In this document: piece by piece, positions 46,801-51,476 of the stretch
How positions within the stretch are numbered: position 1 is the stretch's first letter
Layout of the letters: each line of letters opens with the position of its first letter
Virus record (IMG/VR): IMGVR_UViG_2585427743_000006
Direction: 5' to 3' (one strand)
DNA length: 51,476 bases
Origin: a virus
Lineage: Duplodnaviria > Heunggongvirae > Uroviricota > Caudoviricetes
Position numbers: made by a program

Positions 46801-49800
46801 TCACGGCCCGGTTTTAGCACCACCAGCCCAAGTTCCGGTACCGGAACAGGTCGAAGTAATACCCGCACGTTACCTCCAGATGCGTTGCTGGAATGTGCGG
46901 GACGGACGCGGTGGGCGTTCGGAATAAGGGAGCCTGACATAGATTATCCAGTGACGATAATCGAGGCTGAGGGCTTTCTTAATCTCGTATCCGTGTCTGC
47001 GGTAGCGCTGAATCAGCCATTCGGCCTGTTCTTCAGTACATGGTGGGTGTTGGTACCAGTCGGTTTTAAATGCGTGTGAACGCCGCCCATGCCGGATGGC
47101 AAGGGCGGTATCAGAATTGTGAAATTTGGTTTTGTGCGCCATCGGTTGTCTCTGCTGGCGCAGCAGGTGCCAGTTGTTCAGGCTGGCGTGCGAATTGTAA
47201 ACCAGAATGCCAGAAAAAAACAAACCCCGCCGAAGCGGGTTAAGTGCGGGTGCGTTGAGGATGCCTGACTCATCAGAGGTGGCGAGGGATTTCTCCCTCA
47301 CCTGGTCTCTTACTCCTCAGGTTCGTAAGCTGTGAAGACAGCGACCTCCGTCTGGCCGGTTCGGATTCGTACCTCGCAGAGGTCTTTCCTCGTTACCAGT
47401 GCCGTCACTATGACGGTTAAACAGATGACGATCAGGGCGATTAACATCGCCTTTTGCTGCTTCATAGCCTGCTTCTCCTTGCCTTTCGGCACGTAAGAGG
47501 CTAACCTAGATTTGCCGTTCATAGATTGAGCCTCAGATTAATGTTAAACGTCTTGCAGGACGCGTAACGTTAACTGGGGCTTTTCTCTATCTGCCTTTTG
47601 GTGGCATGCCTGAGACAGATAACCTCAAGCACCCGCAGTAATTTTACATAAAGGTTATGGTTCCTTTCAATAACTCAACAATTTCCCATCTAAATACTAC
47701 TCATATAGTCATATAGGCTGGCGATAATTTAAAGATAAGACTCTCTCTTTTTCTCCACCACATAATGCATTACCAACGCAAAAGTTACCATGGTAATTAT
47801 ATCTTAACGAAAAATACCCCGCGAACATATTCTACTCAACAAAAAATTTTGCGTACGCATTATTCTTTGTAGTATCTTAAGTATGTAATTATTTTTTACA
47901 GGAAATTTTTGCAATGGCTAGCAAGCGCTTTTTCTTCGATTTTTATCAATGTCACACTATAAGCACTGATACAAATGCAGGAGTTAATTCACCTGAAGCT
48001 GTTTTTTCAAAAATTTTTGAGTCATACAGCGAAGGCCGAGACAAAACTGTACGTAAAATAGGAAATAAACTAGTTGAAATGCGCTTCATGGAAAGAACCG
48101 ACTATGGTTTCAGGGGAGTTATAGGAAAACACAGAACCAATAATCTCCCTCATGTTGCTGTAGCCGGAGGTGAAGAAAGAGAAATTAAACTTGAAATCAA
48201 TGAAAACTTATTAGAAAAAGCTTATTTTCATTTTTATACCCAAGACTCAGTTTTAATAATTCAACGAAACAGACTCTGTTATGGCTGGTTGCTATTAAGT
48301 AAATATCTTTCCAACAGTTCACAAAATACAACTGTTAATCCCATCATTCAGACCAGTAGTTTAAAGTGGTTGATGCGTAATGAAGTTCGAATCAAAACTC
48401 TAGAAATCGGTATCGCTCGGCCAAAGAATGTGCAACTATATGAGGATGTTGAACATAACTTCAACAATGCATTGATAGCCACTCTAAATGGTACTAATTC
48501 TGCCAAAGTAAATCTTACATTACGTGGGGATAGTCGTTCTGAAGATCCTGAATCTCGCTATCTAGGTTCTCAACTAAAAAGAGCCTTTAAAGAAACACTA
48601 GAGACTTTTGAGGTTGAAAAACTTAAACTAGAAACCCAAGACATTGAGACCGGTGTACAGCATCCTATCGATCTTGTAGCAGACAAATTAGTCTACTACA
48701 CAGATGTTGAACTTGGAGGTAGGTATCCATTAGTTGGCAGCATTTGGAGCGCCTTAACTCTTGCAAAAGATAGTAAAGATGATGAATTGAAGGCATACTT
48801 TGGAGTAGCCAATCAAAGAGTTGATTAATTTTGGAGCGATGGTATGAAAAAGGGGAAATTGATAACTTTGTACAGTTATGGTTATAATTTAGCCTCTGTT
48901 GTTTTTTGTATCATCGCATGGCCTCTTTCTGCAAAGCTAAATTTTGCACAAATTCAGCCAATCGCTTCGGCCGTTTCTACATTTTCTGGGATATTATTTG
49001 GCTTTGTTTTAGGTTCGCTTACCTTGATTGCTTCAGCTAGAGATAATACGCTAATTAGAAATATAGGAAAAACTGGTTATTTGAAAAAACTGACCGAAGA
49101 AATGCACTCCACTATGGGATGGTTACTATCAGTTTGTATTATTTTTATCATTTTATTATTTTTCCCTGATACACTAAAGTTTAAATTCCCACTAGTAAAA
49201 GATGCCGACGAGCACACATATGCCCAACTATTACTCCAAGTGGGAATTTTTTTCCTGCTTATTACATTTAAAAAATTTTATACTACCTGGTCGCGTCTAA
49301 AAGACATAACAAGGCTCATGTGATATATCTATAATTGCACATAAAAAGACAATCCTAACAATACTCCCATTGTAAGTTGTATATTCTTTCTTATTGTTCC
49401 ATCTGAACATTTGTACCTTCGTGCTATTGTACGCAAAGATATACCTATAACAAAATGAGCGATAATTAACTCATAGTCATCTATTCTATATTGTTTAAGC
49501 TTCAACATGCAGGTATCAATCATACGACCTTCATCGTTGCCACACTGACGGCGTAATTTCTTACCATGAGGTACTACATCTTTATATTTATCAGCCACTT
49601 GCTGCCAGTTGATAGAACTATTTCCAGCTGCAGCCCAAGCCCCCCAACTGTCCAAAATATCATATATATTAGCATTGCTATCCACCTTTTTTTTATATTC
49701 TTTTTTGAGGCAACCAAGAAGCATCCTGGCCATCGTTATTATTTCTATACTTGTAACTGATTCATAAGCATCAGGAGAAATAATCCTCCCATCACTTAAT

Positions 49801-51476
49801 GCCCTTTCACTAAGATTTGCTATTTCCAATAATCGTTCTTTAGTTATTTCCATTATTATCTCCACCGCCCTTTCGGGCGGCCTCCTGATGTTCTGAGGGT
49901 GCAGAAATCCCTCCGGTTAAGGATTAAATTTTATTTACAGTGCTGGATTTAATTATTCAGATTTGGATTATGCTTTCTCTTCACTCCGGTATACAAGAAT
50001 TACAACGTCACCTCTGCTAATCACGCGAGCTGGCTCTCCTGGTTCTATACTGTCAATATCGAAGGTCTCAAAAAACGCATTCATTGCCTTCTGCCGCTGC
50101 GTCTGTTTACAGCGTTTATTCCATTCTTTCAGTAACATCAGTGACAGCCACCGCCATGAGCAGAACATGATGTAGCACCAACCAAGAAGCGCCAGCCCCG
50201 TATTGAGGGCCGTACCAATCGTCATTGTTGCGTCGATATTCACTGTACCTCCTCCTGGAAAATAACTGCATGCCCCAGTTTCTCCGCCAGCGCCAGTTCT
50301 GCCTTAGCACCTGCTGACCGCTGCCAGCCTTTCAGCATGTAAATCGCATCCACACAACGAATCATTGCCATGCAAATATCCATGTAGTGCGGCTGTGTCA
50401 GCCCATCCGGAAGCACAGCCGGATTTAAAACGGTATGCCCTTCCCGTTTCAGTTCCTCTTCCGCATTGTGAAACGCCTCACGGTTGAAATTTTTATACCC
50501 GGTCATTGGACCGGCGATATAGACTCTCACTCTCACGCCATCACCTCCTGAAAATTACCCTGATAAAACGCCAGCACTCGCTGCATAACCTCACTCTTCC
50601 GGCACTCGCGACAGATTATGTTCTGACGCCTGTCGTAGCGACGTATTTCTCCGTCAGGTAATGACCAGATAAGGTCCGGATCAACCGCAGATGGTTTCTT
50701 CAGCTTTGCCCTTGAGAGCTTTTTACGGGCATTTTGCCAGTCCTTACGCGCCTGTTCAGACGGGAATAACCCGTAACCAGAGTTGTATACATCGCCACTG
50801 GCAACCAGCTCTCTGGCCAGAACGCTCATCAGATATCTTGTTGCCCCAGTTTTAGTTTCCAGTTGTCGTAACGTCTCGCGCCCACTCTGGCGTACGAGTT
50901 CAACAACCTGCCCTTTAATTTTTTCCCGCTCTTCTTGTGTAAAAACTTTTGCCACAAGTCCTCCTGAAAATTACCTCATGACCAGAAATCAACACTTACC
51001 CCCTGAAGCCCGGTGGAATTTCGGTATCCGGTTCAGAAATATGATTCACACAACGCTGGTTGTTCGTGCCGCTTACCGGGAGCAGCCAGGGGTTTTCAAA
51101 ATTCCGGTCCGGTCCAAAAAACGTCGTCGCTCGCTGAACAAATTCCGTTCCCGTTTTCCCGGTAGCCGCAAGGTATCTTGCGTAACGCCTCACGCCATCC
51201 AGCATGGCCTCTGGTGACACCCCCTCGCGTAATCTGGCCTTCCAGGCACTGAAAGCGGATTTCTTCGGGTTTGCCCCAGCACGCAACGGGTATTCCCGCC
51301 AGACCTGTTCGAACACATCCGGATAATCCACTCGTCTCACAGGCTGCCCGGTGTTTTCCGGGACTACCCGATCGGCTTCCCGCTGAATGGCGGAATCGGC
51401 TTCAGGCTGCTGCAGTTGGTGTGATTGCTCCGGCCTTGCGGTCATCACCTGCTGCACAGCGCCCGAATCGGCTTTC

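Follow-up and report, generated by a model that had tools for sequence, protein, structure and literature searches.

The DNA analysed here is IMG/VR virus record IMGVR_UViG_2585427743_000006 (Caudoviricetes), 51,476 nt in length; the window denotes this whole stretch and not the AT-rich feature within it that is the subject of this work. The window shares 99.9% identity with a Rac/Qin-like prophage of the enterotoxigenic Escherichia coli strain ATCC 43896. A previous examination of the DNA without database searches (the sequence-only reading) had described an AT-rich stretch in the nin/Q region and proposed that it was a cargo hotspot. A sliding plot over 300-nt intervals confirmed a drop from a GC content of approximately 0.52 to 0.32-0.39 over 47,550-49,950, with flanking values of 0.51-0.57 towards hok/DUF968 (46.0-47.5 kb) and 0.46-0.52 beyond the opposite end. 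By feature, GC content was 0.36 for the intergenic region 47,523-47,913, 0.37 for gene A, 0.34 for gene B and 0.35 for the Q-like gene, compared with a window mean of 0.518. Open reading frame (ORF) calls placed a mok/hokD ORF on the minus strand at 47,310-47,522, gene A (304 aa) on the plus strand at 47,914-48,828, gene B (159 aa) on the plus strand at 48,844-49,323, beginning 16 nt past the gene A stop, and a 178-aa ORF for a Q-type antiterminator on the minus strand at 49,329-49,865. The stop codons of gene B and Q lie tail-to-tail exactly 5 bp apart (49,324-49,328), and the plus-strand module and its convergent Q-like neighbour were thus found at the positions originally given. A generic promoter and terminator scan of 47,200-50,300 returned sites no more numerous than in shuffled sequence and no terminator between the convergent gene B and Q. 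The 5-bp gap and lack of a strong bidirectional terminator fit the geometry of a noncontiguous operon, the transcript overlap itself being a prediction only.

The edges of the variable segment were defined by alignment to two related prophages, one with the same Q and other cargo (locus L003) and one with neither Q nor cargo (L002). The sequence-only reading had set the AT-rich stretch at 47,523-49,900; its AT-richness stood but its extent did not, as the alignment gave a variable segment of approximately 47,646-49,865. The left edge of homology, at approximately 47,646, falls just above the hok -10 element, so that the leftmost 120 nt of the AT-rich stretch comprise the hok leader and promoter and lie outside the variable segment. 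The right edge is at the Q start codon (approximately 49,865), and the 120 nt upstream of Q are conserved backbone kept even in the Q-less L002. This edge is marked by a GC-rich minus-strand hairpin without a T-run (GGCCGCCC-GAAA-GGGCGG, 49,865-49,882), directly upstream of the Q start and retained in L002, where a different gene replaces Q. Because L002 is otherwise collinear and lacks the whole unit of Q, cargo and the sequence box described below, this unit is dispensable for the prophage backbone.

The Q gene forms the upstream frame of the cargo. Its ORF stood as originally called but its start did not: the RefSeq start, ATG at 49,853, gives a gene at 49,329-49,853 (minus strand) encoding 174 rather than 178 aa, and every homologue begins MEITKERLLEIA. 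The protein consists of a conserved 60-aa N-terminal extension followed by a PF06530 Q domain with a helix-turn-helix (HTH) segment (HFVIGISLRTIARRYKCSDGTIRK). The proposed resemblance to phage 21/QuuD-type antiterminators was borne out by matches to Pfam Phage_antitermQ PF06530 (E 2.8e-30, 105 bits against a cut-off of 26 bits, residues 66-172), phrog_79 (E 2.5e-32) and QuuD (33% identity, E 6e-25), with a weak match to the solved Q21 protein in the Protein Data Bank (PDB; E 1e-3). Long homologues of 170-185 aa formed approximately 24 clusters in E. coli and Salmonella, compared with hundreds of short forms of 111-120 aa, and among 5,426 complete E. coli genomes 68 carried long Q at 80% coverage or more. 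The HTH segment is nearly identical in long and short Q, and the non-HTH residues WGAW, NS..W, PHGKK and DDEG..ID are invariant across both. Ratios of nonsynonymous to synonymous substitution (dN/dS) for long Q were 0.18-0.37, and for the Q domain alone 0.12-0.34 at a synonymous divergence (dS) of 0.5-1.4. The gene is intact and conserved with its 60-aa extension in E. coli and Salmonella Rac-like prophages, so that the earlier suggestion of a recombination remnant was not upheld; on these substitution patterns long Q is under purifying selection. Since this selection has kept residues outside the HTH that are invariant in short Q, the comparison argues for retained RNA-polymerase-directed activity. 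Synonymous divergence was uneven along the gene, at 0.03-0.24 in the 5' 180 nt encoding the N-terminal extension and 0.5-1.4 in the cargo-side Q domain, which suggests crossovers within Q, with the 3' part hitch-hiking with the cassette, or nucleotide-level constraint on the 5' part.

Long Q occupies a set place in Rac/Qin-like prophages of E. coli and Salmonella, in which replication genes and DUF977 (with or without DUF4406 and DUF4752) are followed by long Q, the reversed cargo and the box, and then by hok/sok, DUF1367/YbcO or rem/DUF968/RusA, a terminal Q-type gene (DUF1133 or a 250-aa antiterminator) and the late genes. In the window the genes beyond the box are hok, a rem-like gene, DUF968, RusA and DUF1133.

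The box that frames the other end of the cargo is a 12-bp element, GCGTACGCAAAA, at 47,847-47,858 on the minus strand, and contains the palindrome GCGTACGC. In the form GCGTACGCA(AAA), on Q's own strand and 0.6-2.7 kb downstream of Q, it was present in every related locus with enough downstream sequence (approximately 115 loci with at least 1.5 kb after Q). In all nine of the E. coli and phage loci it lay on the Q strand beyond Q, just past the 5' end of the cargo. In a set of one genome per species it was found 0.6-2.7 kb downstream of Q in 27 of 28 loci, the exception being on a contig that ends 1.4 kb after Q, and in the best IMG/VR loci it was found in 77 of 79, both exceptions having less than 0.73 kb after Q. 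The 12-mer is invariant while its flanks have diverged past alignability, and the orientation of its A-tract relative to Q is fixed and matches that in functional late promoters. The window holds a single copy, at 47,847-47,858, and L002 none; assignment of the box to a terminal late promoter after DUF1133 was rejected, this being the sole copy in the window. The box also varies with Q type while the leader that follows stays constant, being replaced by TTACGTACGTAAAAA for QuuD of the K-12 prophage DLP12, where ACGTACGT is the counterpart of the palindrome, and by GCGCGGTCCGCAAAAA for the Q of phage 1720a-02 (39% identical). Because it co-occurs with Q, keeps a fixed orientation and covaries with Q type, the box is the best candidate for the Q-binding element of this Q subfamily.

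In loci where a short Q (111-120 aa) is the sole late regulator, as in phage mEp460_4F5, Shiga toxin (Stx) 1 phage EH1992 and the O104:H4 prophage, the box is followed by a -10-like hexamer, a conserved leader (GTTAAGAGTGG / GTTAAGAGTGGTTAC), an intrinsic terminator and then late genes or stx1, which by sequence is the classical layout of late control. In phage 1720a-02 (L052 4386-4470) and Stx2 phage P14437 (L053 4430-4500) the late leader lies right after or overlaps the Q stop, with no cargo, and L052 has GCGCGGTCCGCAAAAA where the box would be. When a conserved -10, pause element or terminator was sought after the box in long-Q loci, none was found.

These data bear on the view that the Q-like gene is the decaying leftover of a recombination that brought the Q-lysis part of another phage into the nin region, gene and box alike being functionless. 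The composition is mosaic (GC 0.35), another Q-type gene follows downstream and no late leader is recognisable after the box, all of which such a leftover would show. However, none of the E. coli and Salmonella long-Q loci examined has a disrupted ORF, the Q domain evolves at the low dN/dS given above at substantial dS, and the 12-mer has stayed invariant between flanks that no longer align. Decay is therefore highly improbable.

Read on the cargo strand the box becomes TTTTGCGTACGC and supplies a -35 hexamer, TTGCGT. In the window a predicted cargo promoter thus spans 47,849-47,878 on the plus strand, with the -35 at 47,849-47,854 within the box, a -10 read as either TATCTT at 47,873-47,878 (spacer 18) or TAGTAT at 47,870-47,875 (spacer 15), and a ribosome-binding site, AGGA, at 47,900-47,903. 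Across 38 distinct loci TANNNT occurred exactly 17 nt past TTGCGT in 21, each of the other spacings (8-39 nt) occurring in one to five loci, and cargo start codons typically lay 45-75 nt from the box. Because the TTGCGT-N17-TANNNT arrangement recurs and cargo starts at this short distance, the slot appears to bring its own promoter and would supply it to whatever is inserted; a protein bound to the box would be expected to occlude the cargo -35.

The cassette carried in the window consists of a soluble protein and a membrane protein. The 304-aa product of gene A is a Pfam DUF6731 protein; PADLOC and Pfam searches returned DUF6731 only and no RexA match, and a PDB sequence search returned nothing. 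An AlphaFold2 model built with 31 homologues had a predicted local distance difference test score (pLDDT) of 72.8, above 85 in the N-terminal half and approximately 50 in the C-terminal half. A Foldseek comparison of this model with BFVD retrieved uncharacterised phage proteins that match the gene A product in size (lowest E 3e-15) together with RdgC-annotated proteins, and at the level of fold gene A is predicted to be RexA/RdgC-like. The 159-aa product of gene B has three hydrophobic stretches by hydropathy, and its AlphaFold2 model (pLDDT 80) has four long helices (residues 2-30, 34-64, 79-106 and 126-158) plus a short amphipathic one. It matched phrog_8552 (E 1.7e-68), PDC-M18B (E 6.6e-3) and, weakly but co-linearly, the PADLOC RexB hidden Markov model (HMM; E 1.5e-3, residues 14-83 against HMM positions 15-82); a Foldseek search of its model against BFVD gave weak matches only, lambda RexB not being among the 50 matches listed. 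Gene B does resemble RexB-type proteins in being small, in having about four predicted helices and in being encoded directly after its partner.

Homologues of gene B always adjoin a DUF6731 gene, an adjacency kept in five distant loci. The two genes stay together as a conserved unit: they adjoin the integrase in a Vibrio prophage, are present in a Mu-like prophage of Marinobacterium and, at 80% identity, fill the short-Q slot in prophages of Klebsiella variicola. The best BFVD matches of the two models, A0A8S5S8L2 and A0A8S5S8H0, both belong to Siphoviridae sp. ctylc9 and have neighbouring accessions, which suggests that an unrelated phage has a pair homologous at the level of fold. Sequence homology was found neither between A and RexA nor between B and RexB, and literature searches returned nothing on DUF6731. 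The cassette is RexAB-like in its architecture and in the predicted fold of A, and is not a member of the Rex family at the sequence level. By analogy with the sensor and effector of lambda RexAB (PMC11077077), A is likely a DNA-binding sensor that activates the membrane effector B to abort infection.

The segment between Q and box is variable across loci, as a hotspot predicts. Of the 5,426 complete E. coli genomes only 19 contained the window's two-gene module, with identities never below 99%, and other cargo stands at the same position elsewhere: an NA37 protein with a membrane protein (L003, L004 and Salmonella L044-46), a three-gene cassette (L005), a PDC-M53-like pair (L048/L072) or a lone 138-aa gene (L002). 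The hotspot proposal would have been undermined by the same genes in most related prophages and phage-typical GC, and the reverse was clearly seen. GC content of the Q-to-box gap was 0.31-0.41, compared with 0.44-0.58 upstream, and the cargo consisted of one to three genes, on the strand opposite to Q in 34 of 36 loci. Cassettes of at least 15 types were distinguished, and cargo clustering gave more than 30 protein families. In the recurrent arrangement a soluble protein (270-385 aa) is encoded ahead of a membrane protein, which has either 144-198 aa with three or four hydrophobic helices or approximately 400 aa with two or three.

Known defence systems are among these cargoes, namely Kiwa (KwaA, E 9e-81, with a KwaB-like protein) and PD-Lambda-5 (A, E 1e-30; B, E 1e-93), and PADLOC returned further candidates in an NsnA/PD-T4-2_A-like protein with a cytosine methyltransferase, PDC-S60, PDC-S33 and PDC-M53 A+B. 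Flanked by a Q gene and a box and holding variable cargo that includes known systems, the slot has the features by which prophage defence hotspots are usually defined.

Two further cassettes were noted. The commonest cargo beside long Q pairs an NA37 (PF04245, nucleoid-associated) protein with a protein of 400-490 aa containing two or three hydrophobic helices (L003 2615-4970, L004 2477-4940 and L044 6513-8880); no PADLOC model matched either protein, and the pair is a candidate uncharacterised defence pair. In Stx1a phage EH1992 (L009 5373-8055) an unannotated reversed three-gene cassette (350, 130 and 221-240 aa) and the box lie between Q and stx1A, so that the slot sits directly upstream of the late promoter of the toxin genes.

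The content of the slot also bears on whether the DUF6731 and membrane pair is anti-phage at all, or instead serves the prophage, by biasing the choice between lysis and lysogeny or timing lysis, or serves lysogenic conversion. RexA and RexB have roles in the lysogenic-to-lytic transition separate from exclusion (PMC11077077), the Marinobacterium pair is co-oriented with and just upstream of holin and lysis genes, and gene A has no PADLOC match, all of which would suit such a function. It is nevertheless distinctly unlikely, as bona fide defence systems occupy the same slot in other genomes, the pair moves as a two-gene unit among lambdoid, P2-like and Mu-like prophages with the patchy E. coli distribution described above, and low GC with reverse orientation is typical of morons expressed in the lysogen.

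Taken together, the segment 47,646-49,865 is probably an occupied copy of a widespread cargo slot framed by Q and its box. Several results weigh against this reading or parts of it. The cargo families have no detectable sequence relation to one another, and in an all-against-all hhalign comparison of nine A-type and eight B-type families only A_368/NA37 and A_311/A_342 gave significant matches; because most comparisons were non-significant, a common origin of all 'A+B' pairs is unproven. The pair in the window and that of O104:H4/mEp460 (308 + 182 aa) likewise showed no similarity by BLASTP. The likeness of gene A to RexA is one of fold only and is confined to the first 157 residues, pLDDT falling to approximately 50 in the C-terminal half of the model; profile comparison by hhalign with lambda RexA (E 0.7) and RexB (E 0.046) was not significant, and the model of gene B matched the Sbash protein weakly (E 0.57). 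In the window the elements of the predicted cargo promoter are separated by a less than optimal 15 or 18 nt, and the generic scan of 47,200-50,300 missed this promoter. Invariance of the box could in principle come from another DNA-binding protein. On the Q strand after the box, the long-Q loci including the window conserve nothing beyond the 12-mer, with no GTTAAGAGTGG leader or proximal terminator and with -10-like hexamers at a variable 1-13 nt from the box; because only the 12-mer is conserved, a Q-dependent promoter at the window's box is no more than a candidate. Classically, Q stands directly before its target late promoter and the late genes follow, and here a 1.47-kb reverse cassette lies between.

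The Q-framed slot suggests how such insertions might be tolerated. In this large PF06530 subfamily, which includes the late regulators of mEp460 and Stx1 phage EH1992, Q and the box-bearing promoter region are separated by 0.6-2.7 kb of AT-rich DNA. Transcription between them would be naturally discontinuous, and the site would tolerate insertions because Q acts in trans on a promoter beyond the cargo. Reverse orientation would keep a constitutive cassette from reading into the lysis genes. The cassette would most likely be expressed in the lysogen, where it would abort or exclude superinfecting phages. Once the prophage is induced, long Q would be produced and bind the box, blocking the cargo promoter, so that the abortive-infection cassette is silent while the prophage itself grows lytically. 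Long Q may also load onto RNA polymerase that starts beside the box and take transcription past hok and its terminator as far as the nin-like genes, and this read-through would offset the break in the early-right operon made by the reversed cassette, which is untranslated in antisense. At the box, long Q may repress the cargo promoter, direct terminator-resistant transcription toward hok, or both. Only tentatively do we propose the full version, in which long Q and the box form a portable two-way switch: the lysogen would express the cassette, and Q made on induction would both shut its promoter and launch terminator- and Rho-resistant transcription to the nin and terminal Q genes.

The sequence-only reading had also suggested that Q was transferred together with the cargo. 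This did not hold, a near-identical long Q (88% nt identity) being found beside unrelated cargo and the same cargo beside a short Q in Klebsiella. The softer version, that Q regulates the module, still competes, given that box and cargo promoter overlap. In its explicit form long Q would be an antiterminator no longer, but a cassette-dedicated DNA-binding regulator that only represses or tunes the cargo promoter, with Q, cargo and box forming an optional accessory module. The absence of the whole unit from the otherwise collinear L002, the constant presence of a separate terminal Q (DUF1133 or the 250-aa antiterminator) and the lack of a late-type leader and terminator after the box in long-Q loci are consistent with this, as are the overlap of box and cargo -35 and the possession by long Q of an extra N-terminal domain and a GC content as low as that of the cargo. 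On the other hand, WGAW, NS..W, PHGKK and DDEG..ID are shared without change with short Qs that are sole late regulators, the A-tract is held in the orientation to Q found in functional late promoters, and one long Q pairs with unrelated cargo, so there is no co-evolution with a particular cassette. A purely dedicated regulator is consequently somewhat improbable.

The genes neighbouring the slot were also characterised. On the left, the claimed hok/sok system was verified. The mokD/hokD type I toxin ORF (47,310-47,522, minus strand; hokD proper at 47,310-47,465) matched PF01848 HOK_GEF (E 3e-23), and the hok mRNA leader and sok region (47,460-47,670, minus strand) matched Rfam RF01794 at 47,460-47,634 (E 8.6e-25, 108.7 bits against a gathering threshold of 59). 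The locus therefore has the Hok/Gef ORF, the overlapping mok frame and the sok/leader RNA element of a type I hok/sok system, and hokD is annotated by RefSeq in the identical ATCC 43896 locus. Over 44.4-50.3 kb the Rfam search (E 0.1 or below) returned sok only. The promoter scan placed a hok promoter-like site, TTGAAA-18-TAAAAT (10/12), at 47,670-47,641 on the minus strand, and the terminator scan a hairpin with a T-run (CCCGCTTCGGCGGG) at 47,216-47,239 on the minus strand, between hokD and the next backbone gene. This hairpin is the first terminator met by a minus-strand transcript from the box. The second Q-position gene reported previously, at 44,896-45,450, was identified as DUF1133 / phrog_753 'Q-like'. 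The terminal late region beyond it (42,968-44,895) contains a tR'-like terminator (44,788-44,811, minus strand), a 65-aa ORF, a DNA methyltransferase and three tRNAs, with a CAT anticodon (tRNA-Met by ARAGORN, tRNA-Ile by RefSeq), Arg-TCG and Arg-TCT. The leader downstream of the 44,788-44,811 terminator is homologous to the late region of O104:H4/mEp460; the sequence upstream of it is not.

The locus was compared with known systems. It shares with the lambdoid Q and pR' Q-binding element (QBE) cassettes of the phage 82/21 type (Q21 structures 6P18/6JNX) the PF06530 domain (E 2.8e-30), which aligns with Q21 residues 19-101, and an HTH-type DNA-binding region, and its short-Q relatives share the succession of a box in the promoter, leader, terminator and late genes or stx1. 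It differs in that gene and box are 1.47 kb apart with the reverse cassette between them, in the 60-aa N-terminal extension, in a mid-operon position upstream of hok and nin-like genes rather than lysis genes, in the lack of a proximal leader and terminator, and in the second, DUF1133 Q-like gene. A reversed accessory gene downstream of Q is already classical: in DLP12 of E. coli K-12 the order is quuD, nmpC (a reversed porin moron), late promoter and essD/rrrD/rzpD, and there too a PF06530 Q (33% identical) is followed by a reversed accessory gene and then by a palindromic box with an A-tract and an GTTAAGAGTGGTTAC...terminator leader. Unlike the slot loci, DLP12 has the box TTACGTACGTAAAAA approximately 370 nt from the nmpC start, compared with 45-75 nt, its cargo is a porin rather than a cytoplasmic and membrane pair, and the terminal late regulator is QuuD itself. 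In the stretch separating the reversed nmpC from essD (L051 6695-6775), TTACGTACGTAAAAA is followed by the GTTAAGAGTGGTTACTTCG...terminator leader shared with short-Q loci, and this variant box may be the QuuD binding site.

In Qin of K-12 the downstream backbone of hokD, rem, DUF968/ydfU and a terminal Q is the same, and accessory genes again lie immediately upstream of hokD; these are relB-relE (a type II toxin-antitoxin; relBEF), co-oriented with hokD, and a reversed ydfV-flxA (L054 4347-5738), with no long Q and no box. Compared with lambda RexA/RexB and the actinophage Rex-like pairs (Sbash gp30/31, CarolAnn gp44/43), the window pair has no significant similarity to RexA and a marginal match to the RexB HMM, and it stands in the Q slot convergent with Q, whereas Rex lies in the immunity region and is co-transcribed with the repressor. 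Defence hotspots have been described in P2 prophages and P4 satellites (Rousset et al. 2022, PMC9122126), where conserved flanks likewise surround variable, low-GC cargo including known defence systems; here, by contrast, the slot is flanked by a regulator gene and that gene's candidate cis box, and comes with a predicted resident promoter. In phi80 the Tai gene is reverse-oriented within a Q-controlled operon (a 'noncontiguous operon') and is reduced when Q is expressed (PMC11364771). In both cases a known or putative defence gene is oriented against a transcription unit that Q controls or is proposed to control, and the Q-linked reduction resembles the proposed repression of cargo. The phi80 gene, however, is inside the Q-dependent transcript, while the cargo here is upstream of the box and convergent with the Q gene. 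No description of a Q-to-QBE defence slot emerged from literature searches. Within the literature that could be searched, the new elements are the slot between Q gene and Q box with its resident promoter, its breadth across Enterobacterales, the mid-operon long-Q derivative and the fold-level RexA assignment of DUF6731; functional claims on the slot rest on comparative inference.

The arrangement provides a search rule for new anti-phage systems in lambdoid prophages of Enterobacterales, namely a PF06530 Q, an AT-rich reverse cassette and then GCGTACGCAAAA. Most cassettes found by this rule are unannotated, and some are known systems (Kiwa, PD-Lambda-5). The fold-level identity of DUF6731, as a predicted RexA-like protein with a RexB-like partner, would extend the Rex paradigm to Vibrio, Klebsiella, Marinobacterium and E. 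coli prophages. The position of the hotspot would gain a mechanistic reason in the discontinuous transcription between Q and its target promoter, and since the slot of EH1992 lies between Q and stx1, its content may influence the induction biology of toxin phages. The model also offers a way for a prophage to avoid self-triggering of abortive-infection cargo. If the two-way switch were true, a prophage would avoid triggering its own Rex-like suicide system and the polarity of the insertion would be repaired; the Q-to-box slot would then be a general, promoter-equipped docking site, and its dozens of uncharacterised 'soluble A + membrane B' pairs would be diverged Rex-like systems.

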